From the sequence record MK509462: 64,000 nt of DNA. One strand, 5' to 3'. The DNA is from Shigella phage MK-13. Every line of letters begins with the position of its first letter. Position 1 is the first letter of the stretch. Made by a program: the position numbers and the translations under genes. The notes beneath the pieces are model-generated. The model was not told the DNA's origin and ran no database searches. It was given only the letters and a program-made list of their open reading frames with translations. This document shows, in pieces, positions 9,517 through 57,392 of the stretch.

Positions 9517-12297
9517 ATGTCTAGAAACGTCGAGAGCATCTTTGGAGCGGTTGTAACAGCCCCGCACCAGATTCCATACACTTACACCGCAACGGGTGGA
9601 GAGACGTTTATCTCCCTCCCGTTCTACCCTGTTACAGGCTTCATCACCATCAATGGTGGGGTTCAGGTTCCTGTCGACAACTATGAAATTGATGGTAACA
9701 CTGTGAACCTCGGTCGAGCGCTAGAGGCTGATGATGTAGTGTACTGTCTGTTCGACAAGATCCTGTCCCCAGAAGATTATGAAAACGGGATCCGAATCTA
9801 CAAGTTCCAGGCCGTTGGCAACGAGACCTCATTCACCCCAGACTTCACGACGTATGGTGTGCAATCCCTGTATATCGATGGGAAGTTCCAGGTTCCTGGG
9901 GTTGACTACAATTACAACAGCGCAACTGGTGTGGTGTCATTCCTGAATGGATCTCCGACTGCTGGTGTTTGGGTTGTGGCTGAGATGTCTGTGAAGCAAA
10001 ACTATCTGGCTCTGTCTTCGGAGGGTGGTGCCAGTTTGGTAGGCACGACTTCTGGCAGCACTGTGCAGGAAGAGTTGAACGATGTTGCTGGGCAGCTAGC
10101 CAATTTAGAAGATGATCTTTCTACATTGAAAATTGCAGTGGCCAGTGTTTCCTTTACTCAATTTGGGGCAGTTGGTGACGGCGTGGCTAACGACACGCAC
10201 GCCGTAAAACTGGCGTTCGATTATGCTCTTGCTAATAACGTTGCAGTCGAGCAGCATAGCGGTGTTTTCTTGCTGGATGGCACTGAATACATTGATATCA
10301 GAAACCTGCAAACCGACCTCACCGGATGCGTCCTTAAGCCATCCGCATCATGGACTGGTCAGATTGTGATTTCTCAGACTGGCGCGCCTGTCACTTACGG
10401 TTCTAGTTCTGATGTCGTGACAAAACTTAATACTAACAGTCCAGCCAGCCGCGCCGTTGGAAGTACGATAATGAGCGGGATCGCAACTGATAGCACTTTG
10501 GATGGATGCTACGTCAAAATATCGACTTCTCAGCCAATGTTCGTATTCAGGGACGCTACTTACACAAGGAAAGACCTGAACAGAGTTTATAACCGAGGCA
10601 ACATAGAGAACCCGTTACGCTATGGCCTAGGAACGAATGTTACAGAAGTTATTGCGCTGAAAATTCGCAAAGACGTGCAGACTGTTAAAGGGCTTACTAT
10701 TGATGAAAGCCTGTCGAAAAACTATCGCATTGTGTACATCAACAACGCATCACGCGTTAAGCTTGTCAACACGTCTTTCATCAATGCCCCGATAACGCAG
10801 GATTTCAGTGATACCAGAATTGATATTGCAGGCTCATATGACGTGGAAATTGACGGCCTGTTCACACCGTCTGTGGTCGATTCGTTCAACGGCACTGGTG
10901 ACATCTACTCGTATTCTCTGGGTATAAGCGAGAGCATGAATGTCAGAGTGAAGCATATGACTGCTAACGGTGAAGGATGGGGCGCGACCGGTAGCAACAA
11001 CAGCGCAAACATTACTTTCGAAGAATGCGACTTGAGCAGGATTGACTTTCATATGCCTTTCCAGGGATATTTGCGTGTCAATAAATGCAATGTTGGACGA
11101 TACGGTGTAGTTGTAACTGGCATTGGTGACCTAATCATTGATGATGTCATCTTTAATGGTTCAACTGACCAGCTGGGTTCAATTATCGCCACTCGTCCTG
11201 ACTGCGGCGGGTTCTTCGATGGTGACCTGTATATGTCAAATGTGACTATCGCTGGTCGCCGTTCCGGTCAGATTTCGGCACTAATCCAGGGACCTGCTGA
11301 TGCTGGGCAGGGACCAGCATCAGGATCGCCCATCAACAGCACTCTTTTCAATAAAGTTGTTATTCGCGACCTAAAACTGAAAGACGGATTCTTTGAGCAG
11401 ACTTTTGCCACGCTACTGTATTCCCAGCGTGATTCACAACTACTGTTCCCAAAAGTGGTCGATATTGACGGGCTAAGTTTTGGGGCGCTGCCAAAATCAT
11501 CTGGGGTTGGCCTGAATATCGACTTCTCGCGATTTAAAGCGCTGTTCTCTGATATGACAAACTCAGAGCATCCAGTAACAGGAAGAAAAACGACCGATAT
11601 TATTTTACGTAATATTCAAACACCATATCTGTCGGTAACAGCGGCATCAGCGCGTCATAACCCCTCTATTGTCGCAAGTAACGTGCGTCATGTGATAAGT
11701 GGCGAAGTAGATACGCTGCTGGAGATTAACCAGCGTGGCAGATATTTGTTAGATTCATGCTCACTTGAGCAGTTGAAGCTTTTTTATGGTTCGAACCCCA
11801 ATGGCCTGGTAAGTCTCACAATGCGTGGCGGCAGACTTCAGCAGCCTGTTGCAGCAACCATGCCTATTTCTGGTGAAACCACGCACAGCGTCACCCTAGA
11901 TGGAACGGATATTGTGTGCCAGTTCAACGGGCAAGACTCAACATACCCGATCACCAAAGCAATCATTGCCAGGGCGCTTGTTAAAGACTGTAGATATTGG
12001 GATGTTTCTGGCGCAAGACTAAACAATTTGAGTTTCGTTAAGCCTGAAAGCACTAGCACCACTATAACTGTGACTATGAAGGTTGGTCAAAAATTAGCAG
12101 TGTCTACCGGATACACAGCAGGCAATACTTACACAAGAAGCAACTTTACCGCGTTGTGGGAGTCAGGTGCCAAGCAAGTAGCAAGCATTGGCGCGGCAGG
12201 CAACGTGATTGTCACATATACGGTATCAGGTGATTCGGTTTCACAGATAGTAATGACAAGTCCAGCAAGTAATGAGATCCGCGACGTGTCAATTTAA
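9517..12297 (+). CDS. tailspike protein C (extended N-terminal assembly domains plus beta-helix)
   Basis: ORF 9502..12297, start moved to ATG 9517 after hairpin; large N-terminal region without the MNPQF module; repeats such as NVRVKHMTANGEG, ECDLSRIDFH, VNKCNVGRYGVVV. Confidence 0.65.
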   Translation: MSRNVESIFGAVVTAPHQIPYTYTATGGETFISLPFYPVTGFITINGGVQVPVDNYEIDGNTVNLGRALEADDVVYCLFDKILSPEDYENGIRIYKFQAVGNETSFTPDFTTYGVQSLYIDGKFQVPGVDYNYNSATGVVSFLNGSPTAGVWVVAEMSVKQNYLALSSEGGASLVGTTSGSTVQEELNDVAGQLANLEDDLSTLKIAVASVSFTQFGAVGDGVANDTHAVKLAFDYALANNVAVEQHSGVFLLDGTEYIDIRNLQTDLTGCVLKPSASWTGQIVISQTGAPVTYGSSSDVVTKLNTNSPASRAVGSTIMSGIATDSTLDGCYVKISTSQPMFVFRDATYTRKDLNRVYNRGNIENPLRYGLGTNVTEVIALKIRKDVQTVKGLTIDESLSKNYRIVYINNASRVKLVNTSFINAPITQDFSDTRIDIAGSYDVEIDGLFTPSVVDSFNGTGDIYSYSLGISESMNVRVKHMTANGEGWGATGSNNSANITFEECDLSRIDFHMPFQGYLRVNKCNVGRYGVVVTGIGDLIIDDVIFNGSTDQLGSIIATRPDCGGFFDGDLYMSNVTIAGRRSGQISALIQGPADAGQGPASGSPINSTLFNKVVIRDLKLKDGFFEQTFATLLYSQRDSQLLFPKVVDIDGLSFGALPKSSGVGLNIDFSRFKALFSDMTNSEHPVTGRKTTDIILRNIQTPYLSVTAASARHNPSIVASNVRHVISGEVDTLLEINQRGRYLLDSCSLEQLKLFYGSNPNGLVSLTMRGGRLQQPVAATMPISGETTHSVTLDGTDIVCQFNGQDSTYPITKAIIARALVKDCRYWDVSGARLNNLSFVKPESTSTTITVTMKVGQKLAVSTGYTAGNTYTRSNFTALWESGAKQVASIGAAGNVIVTYTVSGDSVSQIVMTSPASNEIRDVSI

Positions 12298-45699: not shown

Positions 45700-46920
45700 A
45701 TGAAAGATAAAGCCCTGGACGTCCCGTACTGCGGTGTCCGTGAAGAAAAGATAAAGTCGGCCAAACCGGTTCTCAGTCCGACCCATACCCGCCTTTCTTA
45801 CGAATGGATGAGCGAGCGCTATAAGATCCACGTCAAGAAGGACGTCCAGCGTCTTCCTGCTCCTTGGACGAATAATCCTATACTACGGCAGGTCAAGTTC
45901 TGTAACGTCCGGAGAGAGCACGACAGGCAGTCTCTTAACCTGATCAACAACATCGTCAACAACGATGCTCTGGGTATGGCAGACAAGATGTTTAACTGCG
46001 TGCTGTTCCGCATGTTCAACCTCTGGGATCCGATCCAGGCTATCGGCGGCGCGATGGCGATCAAAGAATTCGCCAAGATCAACCTTGACGCAACCCGCGA
46101 ACGACTTCAGAAGTTCGAGGCCGACGGCGGCAAGGTGTTCACCAATGCCTTCAACACAGGCGGCCTGAAGCAATGCCTGGCTTTCCCTGAGCTGGTTGTC
46201 AACCACAAAGAGCAGCGCTTCGGTGGGATGATGGTGAACCTGATCTGTAAGGACGGTTCGACCCAGAACATGGATTATAAGGAAGCCAAGGCTATTGCTG
46301 AAGCAGAGCCGGACTTCTACACCATAGAAGGCTGGGAGCCGTACATGCCAATGCGTGTCATCCGTTCCCTGAAGGCATTCGTCAACAAGTATCCAAATTA
46401 CTTCCATGACCTACTGCGCCTTGGTACTCCTCTGGAAGTATACCAGCGCATGTACGACGACATCGAAGGTCTTGGTCCATTCCTGGCCTATCAGATCTGG
46501 GTTGATTTCACGTACATGCCTGGTTATCCGTTCAGTGAGAACCACTTCACGATCGCCGGACCGGGCTGTCGCGCAGGTATTGATCTGCTGTTCCTGAACA
46601 AGGACGGCATGACTCACGAAGAATGCATATTCTGGCTACGGGATAATCAGGACGCAGTATACTCCCAATATGGGTATGTTCGCGAGCAATTCTGGTCGGC
46701 CGAAGAGCCTGTAGACCAATGCATGAACGTTATGCAGCTGGAGAACATGTTCTGTGAACTGAGCAAGTACACTCGCTGTGTTGAGGCGGTTGGGCGCGGT
46801 GAAAAACCTCGGGGCAAGGTCAGCTATGACGGCGGTGGGGAATACAAAAAGCGCTGTGATGAAGTCGTGCTCAAACGTGGTTCCGTCAATTTGCTGGACC
46901 GTTTGAAGAAACCTGAATAA
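45700..46920 (+). CDS. hypothetical protein (406 aa, enzyme-sized)
   Basis: Long clean ORF with AGAGGA-like RBS; no motif recognised by eye. Confidence 0.45.
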   Translation: MKDKALDVPYCGVREEKIKSAKPVLSPTHTRLSYEWMSERYKIHVKKDVQRLPAPWTNNPILRQVKFCNVRREHDRQSLNLINNIVNNDALGMADKMFNCVLFRMFNLWDPIQAIGGAMAIKEFAKINLDATRERLQKFEADGGKVFTNAFNTGGLKQCLAFPELVVNHKEQRFGGMMVNLICKDGSTQNMDYKEAKAIAEAEPDFYTIEGWEPYMPMRVIRSLKAFVNKYPNYFHDLLRLGTPLEVYQRMYDDIEGLGPFLAYQIWVDFTYMPGYPFSENHFTIAGPGCRAGIDLLFLNKDGMTHEECIFWLRDNQDAVYSQYGYVREQFWSAEEPVDQCMNVMQLENMFCELSKYTRCVEAVGRGEKPRGKVSYDGGGEYKKRCDEVVLKRGSVNLLDRLKKPE

Positions 46921-47035: not shown

Positions 47036-49054
47036 ATGTCAGAATTTAAGCCCTTCGCAGTAGCCGTAAACAATAATGTGCTGGCCATGTCAGCAACTGG
47101 TCTGTTCATGACCAACATCGATAAAGATGCTCTGTGGGATCTGTACCTGAACTCTTTCCCTGCTGGCACCAACCCGCTCTACCGTGAGCGCACCGAGCAC
47201 GACTGCACCTGCTGTAAACAATTCATCCGTAACATCGGCGGTGTGGTGACCATCGACGCCGACCTGAACGTGATCTCTATCTGGGATAACATTCAGCTGG
47301 GTAACGAATACGACGTTGTCGCTGCGGCGCTGTCTGCGTATGTCAAGCAACACGCAATCGTCGACGTGTACTTCAACGATACCAAGAAAGTCGGTGTTGA
47401 GTCGAATCACGAAATGAAAGACGGTAATGTCCGCACCTACAACCACTTCCACACCGACCTGCTGCCCAGCTATGTTCTGCGGGCTGATGCCATCGCTTCT
47501 AAGAAGGGTGAAATCCGCCAGGCGATTGAAGTGTTTGAGCGCGGCCTGCGTGAACTGTCTCTGGAATCGGCCGAAATCGTTCTGGAACTGATTGATCAGA
47601 ATTCTCTGTATCGTGGTGAAGAGCACAAAGCTGCTGTGCAGGCGTTCGTGACGAGCAAGACCATGTACGAACAAACTGCAGAAGAGAAACGCGCTCTGTG
47701 GGCTTGGCGTACTGGCTACCGTGCAAACGGACACACCCCTCACGGCATCCGCAATACCGTGATTGGCTCTCTGTTGGTAGACCTCAATGAAGGTCGGGAT
47801 CTGGAAACCGCCGTGAAGTCCTTTGAAGCCAAAGTCGCTCCGACGAACTACAAGCGCCCAACCGCGCTGGTCACGAAGTCCATGATTGAAAACGCGCAGA
47901 AAGAAGTCGAAGCGCTGGGTCTGACTGATTCACTGGGTCGCCGTTATGCCGTGTATGACGATCTGACCATCAACAACGTTTTGTTTGCCGACCTGGCAGC
48001 ACAGAAGAAGATGGACCCGTTTGCTCAGCTGGCGTCTGAAGTGAAGACTCCGACCAAGTCCCTGGACAAGGTTGAAGAGATCACCATCGACGACTTCCTG
48101 ACCAACGTGTTGCCAAAGGCGCATTCCCTGGAAGTGCTGGTTGAGAACTCTCACACTGGCAACCTGATGTCCCTGATCGCCCCGGCTACGGTGGGTGCTC
48201 CTAACCTGTTCAAGTGGAACAACGGCTTCAGCTGGTCATACAATGGCGAAGTGGCCGACTCCATCAAAGAGCGCGTGAAGACAGCAGGCGGCAACGTCGA
48301 CAGCTTCCTCCGTGTGTCGCTGGCGTGGCATAACAACGACGACCTGGATCTGAGCCTGAACGATCCTCTTCACAACCACGTGTATTTCAACAACCGTCGT
48401 TCGGCAACTGGTGCAACCCTGGACATCGACATGAACGGTATGGACGGTATTGACCCGAACCGCCGTCCGGTGGAGAACATCTTCTTCAGCGATGAACGCA
48501 AGCTGCGTGACGGGAACTATGAGTTCTATGTCACCAACTACAGCAAGCGCGAAACCTGCGATGTGGGCTTCGAAATCGAAGTTGAATACAAAGGCCAGAC
48601 CAAGCGCTTCTCGCATCCTGGTCTGGGTAACAAAGACCGCACGTTGGCTGTTGTGGTTCAGGTACGCGCTGGTCAGGTGGTCGACATCAGTTCTACCCTG
48701 AAAGACGACGCTCGCTCTCAGGAAATCTGGGGCATCAAGACCTCCGTCTTCCAGAAGGTACAGCTGGTTCTGAACTCACCAAACCATTGGGACGGCGAGC
48801 AGACGGGCAACAAGCACGTGTTCTTCATCCTGGAAGGTTGTGCTAACCCTGTCGGCACCCGTGGCTTCTACAACGAATATCTGAAGCCGGAACTTGATAA
48901 ACACCGCAAGGTTTTTGAAATGTTAGGTGGTAAGATTAAAGTACAGCCAAGCACTGAGCAGCTGTCCGGTCTGGGCTTCTCTACCACCCAACGCAACCAC
49001 GTGTTCGTGAAGGTGAGCGGCTCGTTCAACCGCACTGTGAAAGTTGTGTTCTAA
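47036..49054 (+). CDS. hypothetical protein (672 aa)
   Basis: Preceded by hairpin + ACATTTGAACTGAAACAGGAAGACTACATC-ATG cassette; no motif recognised. Confidence 0.5.
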   Translation: MSEFKPFAVAVNNNVLAMSATGLFMTNIDKDALWDLYLNSFPAGTNPLYRERTEHDCTCCKQFIRNIGGVVTIDADLNVISIWDNIQLGNEYDVVAAALSAYVKQHAIVDVYFNDTKKVGVESNHEMKDGNVRTYNHFHTDLLPSYVLRADAIASKKGEIRQAIEVFERGLRELSLESAEIVLELIDQNSLYRGEEHKAAVQAFVTSKTMYEQTAEEKRALWAWRTGYRANGHTPHGIRNTVIGSLLVDLNEGRDLETAVKSFEAKVAPTNYKRPTALVTKSMIENAQKEVEALGLTDSLGRRYAVYDDLTINNVLFADLAAQKKMDPFAQLASEVKTPTKSLDKVEEITIDDFLTNVLPKAHSLEVLVENSHTGNLMSLIAPATVGAPNLFKWNNGFSWSYNGEVADSIKERVKTAGGNVDSFLRVSLAWHNNDDLDLSLNDPLHNHVYFNNRRSATGATLDIDMNGMDGIDPNRRPVENIFFSDERKLRDGNYEFYVTNYSKRETCDVGFEIEVEYKGQTKRFSHPGLGNKDRTLAVVVQVRAGQVVDISSTLKDDARSQEIWGIKTSVFQKVQLVLNSPNHWDGEQTGNKHVFFILEGCANPVGTRGFYNEYLKPELDKHRKVFEMLGGKIKVQPSTEQLSGLGFSTTQRNHVFVKVSGSFNRTVKVVF

Positions 49055-49485: not shown

Positions 49486-49513
49486 AACCCCGCCATGTGC
49501 GGGGTTTCTTTTG
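49486..49513 (+). terminator. rho-independent terminator (aaccccgc-catgt-gcggggtt + TCTTTTGG)
   Basis: 8-bp GC stem plus T-run after 49099..49470. Confidence 0.6.
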
Positions 49514-49523
49514 GACAAAGAAT

Positions 49524-49925
49524 ATGAAACCTGTCATCTGTGATTACTGCGGCCTCCCAGCCGAATTCGTCGGTGGTGACGTCCTCCACCCTCATCGCCC
49601 TGACCTCCGCAATCTGAAGTTCTGGGTATGCACTCCATGTGGCGCTCGCGTCGGTTGCCATGCCCATGGCGACGGTAGACAACCTCTGGGAAGGATGGCG
49701 AATGCCGCTCTCCGTGCCGAGAAGCGAAAAGCCCATAGATCGTTTGACCCATTGTGGAAAAGCGGAGAGAGGAGCAGGAGCGACGCTTACAGTTGGCTGG
49801 CGCATAAGCTGGGGATCAAGAAGCGTGATTGCCATATCGGCTTGTTCGATATCGACATGTGCCGTAAAGTAGTTGTTGTATGCAACCAATTACGGGAAAC
49901 ACAGAATGGCAACCATCAATCGTAA
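49524..49925 (+). CDS. zinc-ribbon protein (two CxxC pairs)
   Basis: ORF 49497..49925 truncated to ATG 49524 (downstream of terminator); CDYCG...CTPCG motif. Confidence 0.4.
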   Translation: MKPVICDYCGLPAEFVGGDVLHPHRPDLRNLKFWVCTPCGARVGCHAHGDGRQPLGRMANAALRAEKRKAHRSFDPLWKSGERSRSDAYSWLAHKLGIKKRDCHIGLFDIDMCRKVVVVCNQLRETQNGNHQS

Positions 49926-50700
49926 TGAACCCAAAGGTGTTGAGCTGAAGGGTAAATCTGTTCGCGAAGGTCTGAAGCTGTCTCCAGACCTCCTGAAGTC
50001 CCACATTGCTGAAGTCATCTATGAAGACCGTGAAGTCGGTGGTCATCGTGTCATCACCTGCCATTTCAAGATGGACAACGGCTTTGTCGTCTTTGGTAAG
50101 AATAGCTCTACTTCCATCGACCCTGCCAACTTTGATGAAGAGTTGGGCAAGAAGCTGGCCTATGACAAGACTTTCTCCCAGTTGTGGGAACTGGAAGCCT
50201 ACCGCGCCGTTGTGGAGAAGCAGATGTTGGAGGTGGCTACCGCCGATGCGAAGATAGACATTTTCCAGTACATCTTCGAAAGGGGGAAGATAAACCAGAT
50301 GGCTGGTATGGCATTCTTGAAAGGTCATAGCCAGTCTTTCGTGTTCCATCATCCACGAGACCCAAGTCGCGGATTCGGTGCTGAATTTATTCATACCGAC
50401 AACGAACTTCACAATGACCAACACAACAGCAAAGTCCAGGCCAGAGTGGAAACATATTTGCGTTCACACATGCGGCCTGATGAACTGTATTCTGAACTCG
50501 TTGTTCGCCTGGCCAAGACTTGCACGGCGGCTTACAAGGGTGGGATCTACTTTAATGCCACCACTTGGGATAAGATGAGCGCCGAAGAGCAGAAAGGCTG
50601 CTGTGAAGACATTAGGCGGCTCTTGCTGGCTCCGGCGGATTATATCCCAACCGACCAGAAGGACGCGCTGTTCAAGGCCATCGTCGATTCCTACAAATAA
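49906..50700 (+). CDS. protein with N4 gp49 / Sf6 gp66-like N-terminal domain (tentative)
   Basis: ORF 49873..50700, ATG 49906; HRVITCHFKMDNGFVVFGKNSSTSIDPANFDEELGKKLAY...LWELEAYR resembles that family; from memory. Confidence 0.4.
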   Translation: MATINRNEPKGVELKGKSVREGLKLSPDLLKSHIAEVIYEDREVGGHRVITCHFKMDNGFVVFGKNSSTSIDPANFDEELGKKLAYDKTFSQLWELEAYRAVVEKQMLEVATADAKIDIFQYIFERGKINQMAGMAFLKGHSQSFVFHHPRDPSRGFGAEFIHTDNELHNDQHNSKVQARVETYLRSHMRPDELYSELVVRLAKTCTAAYKGGIYFNATTWDKMSAEEQKGCCEDIRRLLLAPADYIPTDQKDALFKAIVDSYK

Positions 50701-50810: not shown

Positions 50811-51665
50811 ATGTTTCGTTTGAAATTGAACGACCAAGATGTGTTCTACAAACACTTCACCTTCCCAGGTGGTGAGGAACATATCAAGATCCAAAAGTCT
50901 GGTATCCCTATCGGCCACGTCCAGAACGTGGCGATTGATGCTCACATCAAATCATCAGCCGACTTCGTTGAGCTGGCACTGCTGGTTAACGCCGTGCGCG
51001 GCCTGGGTAACGTGGACCGTCTGACGACCTTCCATGCGTATATCCCTTACTTCCCGTATGCTCGCCAGGACCGCCATTGCGACTTCGGCGAGCCTCTGTC
51101 CGTGAAGTGGGCGGCTGAGTTCATCAATAGCATGAACTTTGACCGCGTGGCGATCAAAGACCCTCACAGCCATGTTGTGTCTTCTCTTATCAACAACGTC
51201 CATGTGGTCCCGCAAGATTACATCGTGCGGCAGTATCTGGGCTGGTTCATCCGTGGGAACAACGCTGTGTTGGTAGCCCCTGACGGCGGCGCGGCTAAGA
51301 AGACCGAAGCCCTCAGCCTGTCTCTGGATGGCGTTCCTGTTGTCTACGGACACAAGAACCGTGACGCCAAGACTGGTGAGATCATTGGGGTGAGTATTAC
51401 AACCCCTGAACTGATCAAAGACCGTTATCTGGTGGTGGTCGATGATATCTGCGACGGTGGGCGCACGTTCGTTGAGTTAGGCAAAGAGCTTCAGAAGCAC
51501 AAGCCCAAACACATGACGCTCTTCGTTACCCATGGCATCTTCAGCAAAGGGCTTTCCGTGTTCGACGGGATCTACGATGCTGTGTATGCCGACACTGTCT
51601 GGTGGGAGAATATCACCGCCGACGGTCTTCCTTTCAAAACTGAAAATACAGGACGTGTAAAATGA
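50811..51665 (+). CDS. prs: ribose-phosphate pyrophosphokinase (PRPP synthetase, Prs)
   Basis: AYIPYFPYARQDRH matches Prs signature IPYFGYARQDR; PRPP-binding loop VVVDDICDGGRT matches VDDMIDTGGT. Confidence 0.75.
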   Translation: MFRLKLNDQDVFYKHFTFPGGEEHIKIQKSGIPIGHVQNVAIDAHIKSSADFVELALLVNAVRGLGNVDRLTTFHAYIPYFPYARQDRHCDFGEPLSVKWAAEFINSMNFDRVAIKDPHSHVVSSLINNVHVVPQDYIVRQYLGWFIRGNNAVLVAPDGGAAKKTEALSLSLDGVPVVYGHKNRDAKTGEIIGVSITTPELIKDRYLVVVDDICDGGRTFVELGKELQKHKPKHMTLFVTHGIFSKGLSVFDGIYDAVYADTVWWENITADGLPFKTENTGRVK

Positions 51666-53326
51666 GCATGCGCCACTTAGACCCAATCCATGCAATCGAC
51701 TTCTACAAATCAGGGCACATCTATCAGTTCCCTGAAGGCAGCGAGCTGGTGTTCTCCAACGGAACTCCGCGCTCCAACAAACTGTTCAACTCTCACCTGC
51801 CGAAGAACGGCGTGGTGGTCTGGGGCATCCAGGGTTTCATGACTTGGTTCCATGAACTGTTTGACGAAGCATTCTTCCAGCGCCCGAAGGCCAAGGTGTT
51901 GAAGAAGTATGCCCGTCGCATGAACAAAGTCCTGGGTCCAGGCCGCGTCGGCACAGAGCATATTGAAGCCCTGCATGACCTCGGCTACCTGCCTATCGAA
52001 GTCCGCGCGCTGCCTGAAGGCACCATGTGCCCGTATGGCGTTCCGGTGTATGTGATGTTCAACACCCTGCCGGAGTTCTACTGGCTGACCAACTATCTGG
52101 AGACTGTGTTCAGCTCTGAGATCTGGAAGCCGATGACGAACGCCACTATCGCTCTGCATTACAAGGCACTGATGGTGAAAGCTGCCCTCGCTACAGGCGT
52201 GTCACCGGACCATTGGTTCATCGACTACCAAGGCCACGACTTCTCCTTCCGTGGCATGAGCGGGTGGCATGACGCGGCGTCTTCCGGTTCCGGTCATCTG
52301 GTGTTCTTCAAAGGCACCGATACCAACCCTGCCCTGGACTTCGTTGAAGAGTATTATGGCGCAGACATCGACGAAGACTATGTCGTTGCTGGCTCCGTTG
52401 CGGCTACAGAACACGCCGTGATGTGTATGGGTACGAAGGATGGTGAATTCGAAACCTTCCGCCGCCTGGTGCAGGACGTGTATCCTGATGGCATCGTCAG
52501 CATCGTGTCTGATGCGTGGGATTACTGGCAGGTCATCGACGACTATCTCCCTCGCCTGAAAGATATTATCATGGCGCGTAACGGTAAAGTCGTGATCCGC
52601 CCTGACTCGGGCGACCCAGTTCATATCGTCGGCGGCTACCGCATTGAGGGGTTCAAAGACCGCGCCACGCTGAACATCAGCGGCGTGTCTAGCAGCACTG
52701 AAGTCATTCACATCGAAGAGACGAACACCTATCACCTGATCACAGGCGAAGGCACGATCAACTCTCTGATGGCAGACGACCGTAATATCATCAGCCGTTC
52801 TGAAGCAGTCGGCTCTATCCAGCGACTGTGGGAGATCTTTGGCGGTACTCAAACTGAAACTGGCCACTTCCTGTTGGACGAACACATCGGTCTGATCTAC
52901 GGTGACTCCATCACCCTGGCGCGTGAAGACCAGATCTTTAGCCGTCTGGCTGGCCGGAACTTCGCTTCCATCAACGTGGTGTTCGGTATCGGTTCCTACA
53001 CCTACCAGATGAACACCCGTGACAGTACTGGCACGGCGGTGAAAGCAACGGCTGGTAAGGTGAACGGTGAATTCCGTGAGATCTTCAAAGAGCCGAAGAC
53101 CGACAAAGGCGGGACTAAAAAGTCTGCGCGTGGTTTCCTTAAAGTCATTAAAGACTCTCAGGGTAAACTAGTGTTGGTTGACGGTATCACCTTTGATCAG
53201 GTGCAAGACGCCGACAACCAGCACCAGCTGGTGTATCGTGATGGCAAGTTCTTCAACACTCAAACTCTGGAAGATGCGCGTGTCCGCGCCGCTCCTCTGG
53301 TAGCAGAACTGGCATCACAAATCTGA
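51662..53326 (+). CDS. nadV: nicotinamide phosphoribosyltransferase (NadV / NAMPT)
   Basis: HDFSFRGMSG...GHLVFFKGTDT...GSVAATEHAV corresponds to NAMPT HDFGYRGVSS...AHLVNFKGTDT...SVPAAEHST; ATGA overlap with prs. Confidence 0.8.
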   Translation: MSMRHLDPIHAIDFYKSGHIYQFPEGSELVFSNGTPRSNKLFNSHLPKNGVVVWGIQGFMTWFHELFDEAFFQRPKAKVLKKYARRMNKVLGPGRVGTEHIEALHDLGYLPIEVRALPEGTMCPYGVPVYVMFNTLPEFYWLTNYLETVFSSEIWKPMTNATIALHYKALMVKAALATGVSPDHWFIDYQGHDFSFRGMSGWHDAASSGSGHLVFFKGTDTNPALDFVEEYYGADIDEDYVVAGSVAATEHAVMCMGTKDGEFETFRRLVQDVYPDGIVSIVSDAWDYWQVIDDYLPRLKDIIMARNGKVVIRPDSGDPVHIVGGYRIEGFKDRATLNISGVSSSTEVIHIEETNTYHLITGEGTINSLMADDRNIISRSEAVGSIQRLWEIFGGTQTETGHFLLDEHIGLIYGDSITLAREDQIFSRLAGRNFASINVVFGIGSYTYQMNTRDSTGTAVKATAGKVNGEFREIFKEPKTDKGGTKKSARGFLKVIKDSQGKLVLVDGITFDQVQDADNQHQLVYRDGKFFNTQTLEDARVRAAPLVAELASQI

Positions 53327-53333
53327 TAACCGA

Positions 53334-53355
53334 AGGGGAGGAAACTCCCCTGTTT
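53334..53355 (+). terminator. hairpin aggggag-gaaa-ctcccct + GTTTT
   Basis: Immediately after nadV stop. Confidence 0.5.
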
Positions 53356-53368
53356 TGAGGGAAACCTG

Positions 53369-53728
53369 ATGTCTGTGAAGATGAAAGGTGTCGAGTTCAA
53401 TGCGTACTACCACGATGATGAATATTGGGTGAACGGCGCTTGGCACGACGATCATTGCATCAAAGTCAATGGTGAATATCGCGAAGATGTAGACGCAGAT
53501 ATCCCCGATGACGCCGATGTGGTTATTGAATCCGGCGTGGTCTATGTTCCTGTGAATGGCGAAAGCGGGGTGGAAGAAAAAGACATCTCACTCGTCACCC
53601 ATTTCAAGAACTGGCGCAAACAGAAGAATTTCTCCTTCATTGTCGTGACGGTGGAGAAGAACAAGGTCGCCGATGTTCGCCAAGCCCTGCGGTCGATCCC
53701 TGGTGTCACCGAAGTCAAAGGTGGCTGA
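53369..53728 (+). CDS. hypothetical acidic protein
   Basis: 119-aa ORF, GAGGG RBS. Confidence 0.4.
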   Translation: MSVKMKGVEFNAYYHDDEYWVNGAWHDDHCIKVNGEYREDVDADIPDDADVVIESGVVYVPVNGESGVEEKDISLVTHFKNWRKQKNFSFIVVTVEKNKVADVRQALRSIPGVTEVKGG

Positions 53729-53729
53729 C

Positions 53730-53900
53730 ATGGCCAAACCATTTGAACGTGCGGGCGTCGACAACCTCGACCGCCGCTTTAGCCCATCGGAAACGCTGAT
53801 GAGTCAGATTGAACTCAATCGCGATTTCCTGGAACACATGCTGGTCAAGCCGGAAGGTGAGGCCGAAGACAACCCTGAAGAAGGCAATAACGATGATTGA
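53730..53900 (+). CDS. hypothetical small acidic protein
   Basis: ORF 53673..53900; ATG 53730 after AGGTGG; coupled to neighbours by overlapping stops/starts. Confidence 0.3.
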   Translation: MAKPFERAGVDNLDRRFSPSETLMSQIELNRDFLEHMLVKPEGEAEDNPEEGNNDD

Positions 53901-56094
53901 ATCATTAGAATTTAAGAATGCGGTTGAGACTGCTGCCCCGTCCAACCATGTAATCGTTGTGGACATCTCTTATTCGATGTACCGTGCGCTCCCTGAAGTC
54001 CGTAAGCATCTGAAGGAGAACCTGCCTTCTCTGGTGAAACCGGAAGACACTGTGAGTGTTCTGTATTTCTCCTCCAAAGGCGACTTTGGCACAGTGTTTG
54101 CTGGTCGTCAAATCAGCGCGGCTTCCGACCTGAGTGAGATGAACAAACTGATCGACCGCTTCCTACAACCGTCCGGATGCACCGGATTCGTGGAACCTCT
54201 GGGTCTGGCTGTAGACACCGCTCGTAGTCTGAAGAAGCCTGGTTATGTCAACAACCTGGCATTCATGACCGACGGCTATGACAACTGCTGGCGCTCCAAT
54301 GAAATCCTGGCCGTCGCCGAAACCCTGCCATTTGCTTTCGATAACATTACATTTATCGAATACGGCTGGTACTGTAACCGCGAACTGCTGGCTCTGATGT
54401 CTGAGCGCTCCGGTGCGACCCACGTGTTTGCCGAAGGTCAGGTTGAGTATCAGGCCGAGCTGGAAACCGTGCTGAAGTCTTCAGTGCCGAAGGTGGTTGT
54501 TGATGTGCCTCTGCTATACACCCACGCCATCTATGTTGAAAACGGCGTGGCAACTGTTCTGGCAGTACAGGCAGACTCAGAGCATCCCGTTGGCCACGTG
54601 AGCATCCCTGAGAGCGTCACGAAGCTGTGGGTCGTCAATCCTAACATGATCGACCAGCTTGATGCGCTGGCGGACATCCAGGCGGCATACGTGCTGGCGT
54701 TCTATGGCGTACACATCATGGACGCCGATTTGGTATGGGCTGCCCTGAAGAAAACGGGTGACGTTCGCTTCATCAAACAGTACAGCAACTGCTTCACCAA
54801 GCAGGACTACTCCAACATCAAGATCGATCTGGTTCAGGCTATTGTTGACGACCAGCTGCGCGGCGTTGACGGTATTGACTATGACCTGGTTCCAGCTGAA
54901 GATGCGACGACCGTCGTTGACGTGCTGACGTATCTGGCTGAAGCTGGCGTGTGTGTTGCTACCAAACATCCTATGTTCTCCTACAAGAGCATCGGTCGCG
55001 GTACGGCTCAGAAACTGGACGATACCGAAGACAAGCTGGCAGAACAGATCGCGAACGCCGAGTCCAAAGAAGAGCGCAAAGCCCTGGCTCTCAAGCTGGC
55101 CGAGCACGAAGAGTGGAACCCGACGTTCGAACCTAACAACGATCTGGGTGTTGTGCCAATCAGCGATTTGGTCTATAACTCCGAACGCCCTAATATCAGT
55201 GTACGCACTGTCCAGCACGGCACTGTGGCGATTCCGGAGTTCGTGCAGAAGAAGTTCGGTCTGCCTGAAGAACTGGATACTTTCCAATGGCGCAACTACA
55301 CCATCGTCAAAGACGGCATCATCAACGTGAAGACTCTGCCGTTCAGGGCTGATGTTGAAGTTGTAACCAATCTGTGCCAGATGGGCGTCCATGTGTTCGG
55401 TGGTCCGGAAGTGTTTGTCCTGAACCTGGAAAGCGTACCGCTGGTCAACCGCGCCATGGTCAAGAACATCAGTGCTGCTCAGTTCTTTGCGGATAATGTC
55501 CGTCTGGAAGCCCTGAAAGGCAAGCAGAAGGTGCTGAAGTTCTTCCGTGATGAACTGGTTGGCAAAGGTAACGCCAAAGGCCTGGCAGTACAGTACGGTG
55601 CTGAGGCGGCCGAGTTCCTGTCCTTCTACGGCATCCGTGATTACGGCTTCTCACCGAAGACCGAACTGAAGGACTCCACGGATGTCTACATGAGCCGTGA
55701 GCTGAACGTTAAGATCGCTGGAGCGTCTTCTCTGCCTAGCATCGCGGCAGTACAGAAGAAGATTGCCGAGAACAAGAAACTCAATGCGGGTGACTTGTTC
55801 ATCGCCAATGCTCTGAAGGAATACGAAGCATTCGTGAAGTCTCCTGCGATCACTGCCGTGCCTGAAGCCGTACAGAAACAGCTGATCGAAAACTGGATCG
55901 ACGCTGCTGCCAAGGCGGCCATCACTGAAGTCCGCGCCCTGAACAAGACGCTGTCTAAAGTGGTGTATGGTATCGTTGCTGGTCACGGCTGGTTCACCGA
56001 CCTCGACCTGGAAGAGTCCACCATGGAAGTTGAAGTGGATGGTGTGAAGTACAAGGTCACTGCCGAACTGGCAGAGAAAGAGATCAAAATCTAA
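53893..56094 (+). CDS. von Willebrand factor A (VWA) domain protein
   Basis: ORF 53809..56094; ATG 53893 (ATGATTGA overlap). N-terminal VIVVDISYSM is a MIDAS DxSxS motif in a beta-strand context; about 730 aa. Confidence 0.55.
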   Translation: MIESLEFKNAVETAAPSNHVIVVDISYSMYRALPEVRKHLKENLPSLVKPEDTVSVLYFSSKGDFGTVFAGRQISAASDLSEMNKLIDRFLQPSGCTGFVEPLGLAVDTARSLKKPGYVNNLAFMTDGYDNCWRSNEILAVAETLPFAFDNITFIEYGWYCNRELLALMSERSGATHVFAEGQVEYQAELETVLKSSVPKVVVDVPLLYTHAIYVENGVATVLAVQADSEHPVGHVSIPESVTKLWVVNPNMIDQLDALADIQAAYVLAFYGVHIMDADLVWAALKKTGDVRFIKQYSNCFTKQDYSNIKIDLVQAIVDDQLRGVDGIDYDLVPAEDATTVVDVLTYLAEAGVCVATKHPMFSYKSIGRGTAQKLDDTEDKLAEQIANAESKEERKALALKLAEHEEWNPTFEPNNDLGVVPISDLVYNSERPNISVRTVQHGTVAIPEFVQKKFGLPEELDTFQWRNYTIVKDGIINVKTLPFRADVEVVTNLCQMGVHVFGGPEVFVLNLESVPLVNRAMVKNISAAQFFADNVRLEALKGKQKVLKFFRDELVGKGNAKGLAVQYGAEAAEFLSFYGIRDYGFSPKTELKDSTDVYMSRELNVKIAGASSLPSIAAVQKKIAENKKLNAGDLFIANALKEYEAFVKSPAITAVPEAVQKQLIENWIDAAAKAAITEVRALNKTLSKVVYGIVAGHGWFTDLDLEESTMEVEVDGVKYKVTAELAEKEIKI

Positions 56095-56100
56095 TCCAAC

Positions 56101-56124
56101 GGGCGGGGCAACCCGCCTTTCTTT
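56101..56124 (+). terminator. hairpin gggcggg-gcaa-cccgcc + TTTCTTTG
   Basis: After VWA gene stop. Confidence 0.5.
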
Positions 56125-56136
56125 GGGAGAAGTAGC

Positions 56137-56463
56137 ATGAGCAGTAAACCAACATATGTTGAAGTCATGCGTCATCTGGCTCAGTACGCCACTGACAATC
56201 TGAACTTAGATGCAGACGAGGTGAAATACCCAAACGTCAAGAAAATGATTGACGGTGAAGTTGCCACAGACGATGCGTTGGATAAGTTTGCAGGCCTCCG
56301 CACCAAGAAGGATCTCGGCGGTGATGAACTGGACGCTATCGAAATTGTAATGGACCTCGAAGAAGAGTTTCAGGTCGAAATCGACGACGGTTGGCTGGGT
56401 AGTAAAGGCGATGACCCGACCATGGGTGAACTCGCTGAACTCGTGGTTGCCCTGCGCAAATAA
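56137..56463 (+). CDS. acyl carrier protein homologue with Ser-to-Glu substitution at the phosphopantetheine site
   Basis: DLGGDELDAIEIVMDLEEEFQVEIDDG aligns with E. coli ACP [27 protein letters not shown]; the DSL serine is GAA (Glu) at 56326..56328. Confidence 0.6.
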   Translation: MSSKPTYVEVMRHLAQYATDNLNLDADEVKYPNVKKMIDGEVATDDALDKFAGLRTKKDLGGDELDAIEIVMDLEEEFQVEIDDGWLGSKGDDPTMGELAELVVALRK

Positions 56464-56469
56464 CAGAAG

Positions 56470-56500
56470 TCCCCAACGTTTGTTGGGGATTTTTACTTTT
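56470..56500 (+). terminator. rho-independent terminator (ccccaac-gttt-gttgggg + ATTTTTACTTTT)
   Basis: 7-bp stem, T-rich tail after ACP-like gene. Confidence 0.65.
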
Positions 56501-56859: not shown

Positions 56860-56885
56860 TCTATTTGAAATGCAGGAACTATATC

Positions 56886-57392
56886 ATGACCGATCAACAA
56901 ATTCAAGATTTATTTTACCTCGCCCATGATAAGTCCCACATCATGCGCCCCGGTACTGTTTCCCCTGCCGTCCGTGATCTGGTGCAAGAATTACGCGAAC
57001 CACAGACGACCACACTTTATCGCGGGCTGCCTAAGGAGGACGTTGCGCGTTTAGAGATGTTGTTTGAACGAGGCGACATGTTCCAGACATGGGATTCTTG
57101 TCTTAGCTTCAGTGAACTGAAGCATGTGGCCAAACAATTTTCTAAATCGTACGGAACCAAAGCTGTTGCCCGCATTTGTTACAAACATCGAAACGGACTC
57201 CCGGAGGGGCTTAATGTCTATGGTTCTCTAGAAAAATTTGTGAACAAAGGCGATGAATCAGAAATGGATATGCTGGACTTGGCGTCCATGGAGAAAGAAT
57301 GGATATTCTGCCAGCCTCGCGTCATACCAGTTTCAAGAAAAATGGCAACAGACGGGACGATGGTTTTTACCGTATCACTTGTTACCCTATAA
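56886..57392 (+). CDS. hypothetical protein; candidate ADP-ribosyltransferase (speculative R / S-x-S / E-x-E pattern)
   Basis: ORF 56865..57392, ATG 56886. LYRG (Arg), SCLSFS, and EKEW arranged in the order seen in R-S-E ADP-ribosyltransferases such as T4 Alt/Mod; weak evidence. Confidence 0.4.
   Translation: MTDQQIQDLFYLAHDKSHIMRPGTVSPAVRDLVQELREPQTTTLYRGLPKEDVARLEMLFERGDMFQTWDSCLSFSELKHVAKQFSKSYGTKAVARICYKHRNGLPEGLNVYGSLEKFVNKGDESEMDMLDLASMEKEWIFCQPRVIPVSRKMATDGTMVFTVSLVTL

Follow-up and report, generated by a model that had tools for sequence, protein, structure and literature searches.

A phage VWA protein with an intact MIDAS and a family-specific C-terminal module as a putative ATPase-independent binding adaptor

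How might a large VWA protein work in a phage that encodes no ATPase beside it? The question is raised by a gene of Shigella phage MK-13, which lies in a 64,000-nucleotide (nt) stretch of sequence record MK509462 (hereafter the window) and encodes a protein of 733 amino acids (aa) with a MIDAS (metal-ion-dependent adhesion site). The window region shares 95.6% nt identity with Salmonella phage SKML-39 and 93% with Shigella phages Ag3 and ChubbyThor, all three of the genus Agtrevirus in the family Ackermannviridae. An earlier note, made from the sequence alone, had described a VWA protein within an operon that lacks the MoxR/CobS-type AAA+ ATPase with which such proteins were said to act normally. 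Our analysis suggests, with a probability of roughly 45%, a complete cytoplasmic, non-virion phage protein that serves as a MIDAS-dependent binding adaptor without a dedicated AAA+ ATPase and is apparently expressed with neighbouring replication and host-takeover genes.

The MIDAS head of the VWA protein

The gene and the parts of its product are located as follows:
53893-56094, + strand, ATG to TAA: VWA/MIDAS protein of 733 aa, orthologue of SKML-39 gp052 and full-length member of phrog_2426
53941-54477, + strand: VWA domain, residues ~17-195
53962-53976, + strand: MIDAS residues D24, S26 and S28, with T97 and D127 further on in the VWA domain
54481-54852, + strand: beta-sandwich (residues ~200-248, plus an N-terminal strand, 3-6) and helical region (~252-318)
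54853-56091, + strand: family-specific C-terminal module of mixed alpha/beta structure, residues ~320-733

Pfam alone was unconvincing for this protein, giving VWA_3 at E=0.005 and 17 bits against a cut-off of 27, and the VWA assignment was settled by a structure model and an alignment instead. The AlphaFold2 model, built from a 41-sequence alignment, had a mean predicted local distance difference test score (pLDDT) of 87.4 and a predicted template modelling score (pTM) of 0.72. It displayed a Rossmann-like alpha/beta VWA fold with a complete MIDAS, namely D24-I-S26-Y-S28, T97 (in GCTGF) and D127 (in MTDGYDN), where a metal site is predicted. Across 236 full-length members with a median identity of 34% to the MK-13 protein, D24 was conserved in 99%, S26 in 98%, S28 in 99%, and T97 and D127 both in 100%; these residues are the strongest constraints in the whole protein. 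Bacillus phage PBS1 has retained the site, as have two copies on bacterial chromosomes. The motif VIVVDISYSM, by which the earlier note had recognized the protein, is indeed part of an intact MIDAS conserved at 98-100%, and the doubt whether these residues would hold on alignment is removed.

The VWA domain is accompanied, within residues ~1-320, by a beta-sandwich and a following helical domain, as in the core of ArnB and Sec23/24, and the long structural matches of the protein belong to the ArnB/4fx5/Sec23-24 class. In the model, the first ~320 residues are shown as a VWA domain with intact MIDAS packed on the beta-sandwich and the helical region, in the arrangement of this class. Proteins of the class bind other proteins directly, and their described partners are not MoxR/CobS-type ATPases (PMC12852372). 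Sulfolobus ArnB/ArnE and Catenulispora acidiphila 4fx5 share the head architecture, as does the Sec23/Sec24 core, at only ~10-16% sequence identity. ArnB has ~380 aa and ends in a phosphorylated four-helix regulatory bundle read by the FHA/zinc-finger protein ArnA, whereas the phage protein has no kinase, FHA or adjacent zinc-finger partner and carries an extra module of ~410 residues that ArnB and Sec23/24 lack. It also has no gelsolin or zinc-finger domain. An ArnB-type zinc-finger/FHA partner with phosphorylation-dependent regulation was not found in the window or at homologous loci, where FHA, kinase or phosphatase genes adjacent to the VWA gene were likewise absent.

A longer, TTG-started frame exists from 53809; all homologues nonetheless begin at the MI... 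position of the MK-13 protein, and they have the ...EKEIKI end in common. The protein matched the phrog_2426 profile from end to end (2-736 of 736, E=0), and its relatives in 108 database clusters aligned at 93-100% coverage, with identity down to 27%. Because the homologues all start at this position and the PHROG match runs from end to end, the gene is complete and not a piece of a longer one. The protein of about 730 residues described before is thus a real open reading frame (ORF) with confirmed start and stop, and the reservation that it might be a fragment of a longer structural gene falls away with the end-to-end match and the shared termini. In Escherichia phage vB_EcoM_KWBSE43-6 the VWA gene is split into ORFs of 475 and 291 aa that overlap by 49 nt (locus L036, ~10001-11657), which probably indicates a frameshift, a sequencing error or pseudogenization; UniProt/BFVD lists the 475-aa piece separately as a 'VWFA domain-containing protein'.

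The same protein stands in phrog_2426 and in GenBank as 'vWA-containing protein' (LIMEstone1, RC-2014, ChubbyThor gp158 and SKML-39 gp052), with 82-99% protein identity, equal length and the same neighbours. These entries carry a domain label only ('unknown function' in PHROGs). At the annotation level the protein is therefore known, since orthologues are called 'vWA-containing' in dozens of GenBank phage records; what is new here is a class in which a putative MIDAS adaptor is joined to an unprecedented C-terminal module, widely distributed in phages. Literature searches returned no characterized phage VWA protein of this type and no anti-defence role for one.

The C-terminal module and the spread of the family

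Residues 197-733, modelled alone, reached a pLDDT of 91.2 and a pTM of 0.81. A Foldseek search of BFVD with this model returned four matches, all of them family members, and a profile of the same residues found nothing among PDB sequences. No Pfam model matched the C-terminal region in eight diverse members. Searches of Pfam, NCBIfam, PADLOC and PDB sequences with the full protein and the C-terminal profile gave only the weak VWA signal, the one other match being to TFIIS-N and insignificant (E=0.12). The domain search proposed earlier for the C-terminal 500 residues was thus carried out and matched no known domain or structure; as modelled, the last ~410 residues are shown to be a family-specific module with no counterpart in the structure libraries searched. 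Among 150 matches listed, the module almost always starts ~200 residues into proteins of 700-800 aa. A Pfam VWA match was found in 7 of the 8 diverse members scanned, and the remaining one, of 574 aa, has no N-terminal region. These matches show the module as obligatorily fused to a region of VWA size.

Conserved motifs of the module are GDVRFI..NCFTKQDYS, FxYxRIG, RPNIS, RNYTIVKDGI, P.xNRxM, YG.EAA.WL..GI.DYGFSPK and GxxWF. The near-invariant polar residues are D290, Q304, Y364, R432, N434, S436, R467, D474 and N519; W700 and F701 are also (nearly) invariant. Nine such polar residues clustered in conserved motifs would suit an enzyme, for example one of DNA hypermodification, NAD/ADP-ribose or nucleotide metabolism, which the VWA domain only tethers or regulates. 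In the Ackermannviridae the neighbours include a gene pair of the NAD+-reconstitution type NARP1 and genes of the 5-hydroxymethyldeoxyuridine (5-hmdU) DNA kinase family (see below), and elsewhere the VWA gene lies loosely near other genes of NAD/ADP-ribose type (a Nudix hydrolase in PBS1, a CN-hydrolase in a jumbo phage and a cytidylyltransferase in Miro). Against this, no conserved His, Cys, Lys or Glu, as typical for hydrolases or transferases, stands out in the module across the 236 sequences, neither fold nor sequence similarity to any enzyme was found, and the metabolic neighbours vary by lineage with none recurring. We consider it unlikely that the module is primarily an enzyme.

With clusters formed at 50% identity, the C-terminal profile retrieved 1,436 of their representatives at E<=1e-3, of which 912 reached E<=1e-30. 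Deposited phages with the VWA protein include the Ackermannviridae, the T4-like Slopekvirus (Miro) and other Klebsiella, Citrobacter, Cronobacter and Enterobacter phages of ~175-181 kb, and further carriers are Shewanella phage Thanatos, Erwinia phage Bue1, Bacillus phage PBS1 and Rhizobium phages. In IMG/VR, the protein was found in many jumbo phage contigs of 300-510 kb. A bacterial genome collection gave four matches, two on large contigs of Novimethylophilus kurashikiensis (225 kb) and Achromobacter anxifer (487 kb) and two on short contigs binned with rumen Prevotella and Fibrobacter. The two full-length bacterial copies (Novimethylophilus, locus L012, 7140-9287; Achromobacter, locus L013, 7104-9284) have an intact MIDAS; missing from both is the variable helical insert at query residues ~370-410. 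Jumbo-phage copies share 47-48% identity with the one in Novimethylophilus, which has phage-like neighbours (a ClpP-like protease and a CxxCxxCC protein); no informative operon surrounds the VWA homologue at either locus. With more than 1,400 clusters at 50% identity, in large lytic phages of very different hosts, the C-terminal module is among the more widespread phage proteins without an assigned function. The combination of a well-understood binding device, the intact MIDAS, with ~410 confidently modelled residues that match no solved structure makes the protein a tractable target.

Partners and proposed action of the VWA protein

The VWA protein could be a co-chaperone of a MoxR/CobS-type AAA+ ATPase that is encoded elsewhere in the phage or by the host, active in assembly or metal insertion in a RavA/ViaA-, NorQ/NorD- or CobS/CobT-like way. 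A Walker-A screen found no such ATPase among the ORFs of at least 120 aa in the window, and none is annotated in the complete SKML-39 genome, whose ORFs of at least 150 aa yielded, apart from non-ATPase candidates, helicases, a PhoH-like protein and the 5-hmdU DNA kinase; the expression used would miss atypical P-loops and did miss the clamp loader. The earlier observation that no MoxR/CobS-type ATPase is adjacent is borne out, and the wider search that it called for, run in the window and in SKML-39, detected none. No recurrent ATPase was found near VWA homologues across 84 loci from 28 lineages. In the MoxR-associated VWA proteins (ViaA, NorD and CoxE) and the chelatase subunits CobT, ChlD and BchD, the VWA domain stands at the C-terminus. 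Those proteins are encoded with their AAA+ partner, whereas the phage protein has its VWA domain at the N-terminus (17-195) and no partner gene was detected, so that neither the ATPase gene nor the C-terminal VWA arrangement of the MoxR/CobS-dependent class was found. Pfam and NCBIfam gave no CobT, ChlD or ViaA signal, and the ATPase-independent ArnB/Sec23-24 class supplies the long structural matches. One common host ATPase is also improbable for hosts that range from Enterobacteria to Bacillus and Rhizobium, plus the contigs binned with rumen Prevotella and Fibrobacter. A co-chaperone of this type is distinctly unlikely. The premise that a VWA protein normally needs a MoxR/CobS ATPase fits poorly here, where the head has the ArnB/Sec23-24 arrangement, and the puzzle of the missing ATPase mostly dissolves because this architecture is recognized.

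The neighbourhoods of the 84 loci were compared by all-against-all BLASTP clustering of their ORFs, with the 28 lineages grouped by VWA identity. No neighbour cluster reached more than 4 of the 28 lineages, in a comparison that would miss very divergent partners. The most widespread neighbours inspected were a topoisomerase II subunit and a ClpP-like protease (4 lineages each), followed by homing endonucleases (3); the first two look like lineage synteny, and the gene contexts of distant homologues differ completely from each other. As judged from these comparisons, the VWA protein appears to be an autonomous module, and the 'operon' a family-level feature of phages that are syntenic throughout. 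In MK-13 the cluster around the gene is as follows:
53334-53351, + strand: terminator-like hairpin after the nampt-like gene, with a 7-base-pair stem, a GAAA-type loop and a short U-tract (GUUUUG)
53369-53728, + strand: small acidic protein 1, 119 aa, net charge -8, phrog_4254
53730-53900, + strand: small acidic protein 2, 56 aa, net charge -9, C-terminus ...PEEGNNDD, phrog_8656
56101-56118, + strand: terminator-like GC-rich hairpin, then UUUCUUUG, between the VWA gene and the acyl carrier protein (ACP)-like gene, found by pattern scan
56137-56463, + strand: ACP-fold acidic protein, 108 aa, net charge -14, phrog_4154, Pfam PP-binding at E~1e-5
56470-56489, + strand: strong intrinsic-terminator-like hairpin, then UUUUUACUUUU, after the ACP-like gene, closing the cluster

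The proposed translational coupling of the VWA gene to two small acidic ORFs upstream (net charges -8 and -9) is seen directly. The stop of the 119-aa ORF (TGA, ending at 53728) is separated by 1 base from the ATG of the 56-aa ORF (53730), whose TGA (53898-53900) sits inside the VWA start ATGATTGA, an overlap of 8 nt. Hairpins also bracket the unit on both sides, as described before, the 5' one being weak: it folds at -14.2 kcal/mol (z -1.5) and was not flagged by the pattern scan. The hairpin at 56101-56118, which separates the VWA gene from the ACP-like gene, folds at -17.6 kcal/mol (z -2.8), and that at 56470-56489 at -18.5 kcal/mol (z -5.5), with 0 of 200 shuffles equally stable. The GenBank record of LIMEstone1 has three annotated terminators within the region that matches window positions 53300-56500.

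By tblastn, the 56-aa ORF occurs almost only in Ackermannviridae-type records; in the rows compared it lies immediately 5' of the VWA gene, and its acidic C-termini (...NNDD or ...ENND) recur in relatives. The 119-aa ORF is found in the Ackermannviridae and also in T4-like Klebsiella and Enterobacter phages and in Cronobacter phage CR3, there away from the VWA gene; in the T4-like phages it lies ~25 kb from where related phages carry that gene. A small acidic ORF upstream was not a general feature of the family at the loci compared, and both ORFs were rejected as general VWA partners outside the Ackermannviridae by their distribution. The ACP-like gene accompanies the VWA gene throughout the Ackermannviridae, including Bue1 and Serratia 3M-type phages, and not elsewhere. 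Neither the ACP-like protein nor the small acidic one can be a general VWA ligand, as most VWA-carrying lineages lack their genes. The claim that the operon is a functional unit therefore stands inside the Ackermannviridae and fails elsewhere, since the 56-aa ORF, the 119-aa ORF and the ACP-like gene distribute differently.

The ACP-like gene does follow, as stated before, with a hairpin in between, and its product lacks the standard carrier serine: the phosphopantetheine Ser is absent, with GGDELD in place of GADSLD. In an alignment with E. coli AcpP, the Ser36 position is Glu or Asp in 18 of 18 distinct Ackermannviridae copies. Because the serine is replaced in all of these copies, the protein cannot, as far as its sequence tells, be a conventional acyl carrier and is probably a conserved, serine-less and very acidic ACP mimic.

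Where the VWA protein acts is indicated by its gene neighbourhood. In the SKML-39 annotation, the gene shares both strand and block with the replication, nucleotide and host-interaction genes, and it stands amid replication and nucleotide-metabolism genes in several phage groups. No N-terminal signal-like sequence was seen in the protein. From these observations and the virion data below, we take the product to be cytoplasmic and non-structural and probably made ahead of late assembly. A virion or adhesion protein, that is, a minor tail protein or tip adhesin whose VWA domain binds the host surface, is suggested by two GenBank records that label the orthologue 'minor tail protein' and by pilus-tip VWA adhesins (PitA, SpaC, RrgA and Mfa5) among the structural matches. 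These adhesin matches span the VWA domain only, the cluster to which the gene belongs is non-structural and on the early/middle strand, and neither a signal peptide nor a tail-associated domain was seen. Moreover, virion mass spectrometry of Sajous1 retrieved the orthologue gp185 with 1 peptide only, against 196-311 for some assembly or structural proteins (PMC10892097). A structural role is largely excluded, and an adhesin is hardly credible.

The same neighbourhood bears on the idea of a Ku/INTS13-14-like or TFIIH p44-like subunit for DNA-end binding or for the control of a phage helicase or replisome component. The gene lies amid clamp, clamp-loader, helicase, RNase H and recombination genes; in one lineage (locus L009) it is 19 nt 3' of a PIF1-type helicase gene, and in others it is near topoisomerase II, gp32 or DnaB/primase/polymerase genes. 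Such proximity is normal for early/middle phage genes and unspecific. An intact MIDAS is atypical for Ku, the Ku70/80-type beta-barrel/bridge domain after the VWA domain is absent, and Pfam found no DNA-binding motif. We hold this subunit to be very improbable. YegL/TerY proteins, of ~200-220 aa, are single-domain and usually occur with kinase/phosphatase or Ter genes. Like the phage protein they are cytoplasmic VWA proteins with a MIDAS, and one JGI record labels a distant family member 'YegL'; unlike them, the phage protein has a 530-aa C-terminal extension, a phage context and no kinase/phosphatase neighbours found.

We propose with moderate confidence, by analogy with the domain family, that the VWA protein is an ATPase-free, Mg2+/MIDAS-dependent protein-binding adaptor. 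The target protein would be caught at a carboxylate (Asp, Glu or the C-terminus) by the MIDAS metal, as is general for VWA domains; ligand binding would involve no ATP-driven remodelling, and the C-terminal module would supply a second binding or effector activity. More speculatively, and with low confidence, the MIDAS may in the Ackermannviridae have its ligand or regulator in the 56-aa acidic peptide co-translated with the VWA protein, or in the ACP-like protein with its Ser-to-Glu change. A role in host takeover or counter-defence is an equally speculative, low-confidence idea, raised because the gene directly follows the NARP1-type pair and is near a homologue of Alt-like ADP-ribosyltransferases.

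Several points weigh against the adaptor. Its role is drawn from the domain family only, and its timing of expression from the neighbouring genes. A host-encoded AAA+ partner may exist. An active site may be made up by the nine conserved polar residues, and the protein would then be an enzyme and not purely a binding protein. In most of the lineages with a VWA gene, the ACP-like gene and the small acidic ORF are missing, and the NARP1 adjacency is confined to the Ackermannviridae, whose genomes are syntenic throughout.

A bolder version, which we regard as rather unlikely, would make the family a large phage-borne class of ATPase-independent MIDAS 'capture' proteins. Here the head would seize a conserved host (or phage) protein by a carboxylate, and the ~410-residue module would neutralize or redirect this target, in a new takeover or counter-defence mechanism common to the Ackermannviridae, T4-like phages, PBS1 and many jumbo phages; in the Ackermannviridae, the ACP mimic and/or the 56-aa peptide would be built-in ligands (decoys or regulators). 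With a host protein as its ligand, the VWA protein would be a new kind of phage takeover or anti-defence factor; a phage-encoded ligand would instead make it a new replication or assembly accessory.

Neighbouring genes

The genes 5' of the VWA gene encode a sliding clamp, a clamp loader, RegA, MazG and a 5-hmdU DNA kinase helical-domain protein, and further a 672-aa protein, a DUF3268 zinc-finger protein, an N4-gp49-like protein and the products of a prs-like and a nampt-like gene. On the 3' side lie the ACP-like gene, small ORFs, and genes for spanins, a helicase, RNase H, a late sigma factor and gp46/47-like nuclease subunits. Features that enter the argument are:
45700-46920, + strand: 406-aa protein, Pfam HMUDK_hel (5-hmdU DNA kinase, helical domain), E=3e-81
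47036-49054, + strand: 672-aa protein, phrog_1735, no Pfam match, adjoining the 5-hmdU-kinase-family gene
49497-49925, + strand: DUF3268 zinc-finger protein, E=3e-35, 4 kb 5' of the VWA gene
49906-50700, + strand: N4 gp49 / Sf6 gp66-family protein, between the 672-aa gene and the NARP1-like pair
50811-51665, + strand: prs-like gene (Pfam Pribosyltran_N / Pribosyltran; GenBank, ribose-phosphate pyrophosphokinase)
51662-53326, + strand: nampt-like gene (Pfam NAPRTase family; GenBank, nicotinamide phosphoribosyltransferase)
56865-57392, + strand: 175-aa ORF, candidate small Alt-like ADP-ribosyltransferase domain, phrog_832 match at E=1.8e-15

The prs-like and nampt-like genes overlap by 4 nt (51662-51665) and directly precede the three-gene unit that ends with the VWA gene. 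The NARP1 operon for counter-defence by NAD+ reconstitution consists of Adps and Namat and occurs in phages Bas63 and SpbetaL1 (bioRxiv 10.1101/2024.02.11.579819); by its predicted products, the MK-13 pair is in the NARP1 gene arrangement. On the other side of the unit, the 175-aa ORF aligns with positions 1265-1425 of 1480, the C-terminal part, of phrog_832 ('RNA polymerase ADP-ribosylase'). It has no Pfam match and may be a small Alt-like ADP-ribosyltransferase domain protein. The ORF is present in ChubbyThor (gp155), and SKML-39 seems to lack it or to differ there.

The DUF3268 protein is a candidate interactor of the VWA protein by analogy, since ArnB-type VWA proteins use a zinc-finger partner. 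The 672-aa phrog_1735 protein was considered as a partner since one of its homologues and a distant VWA homologue are 5 kb apart, and it was rejected for its different phage distribution: it occurs in Mydovirus, Caulobacter, phiRSL1 and siphoviruses, groups absent among the listed VWA matches, and is not among the listed matches for the Slopekvirus/Karamvirus phages that carry the VWA gene. In all, phrog_1735 proteins were found in 557 phage records (Ackermannviridae, Klebsiella BIS47-type, Caulobacter, phiRSL1, Bacillus, Microcystis LMM01 and siphoviruses). Some of these records are labelled 'DNA-directed RNA polymerase' and one 'structural protein', and neither label is supported by anything seen. 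The homologue at one distant VWA locus (L009) matches Pfam DUF8224.

SKML-39 has a separate gene, for a product of 220 aa, that matches HMUDK_HMUD1 (E=3e-107) but carries the annotation 'terminase small subunit'. By their Pfam matches, the 406-aa HMUDK_hel protein and this 220-aa protein belong to families of the thymidine hypermodification pathway, and they look mis- or under-annotated in RefSeq.

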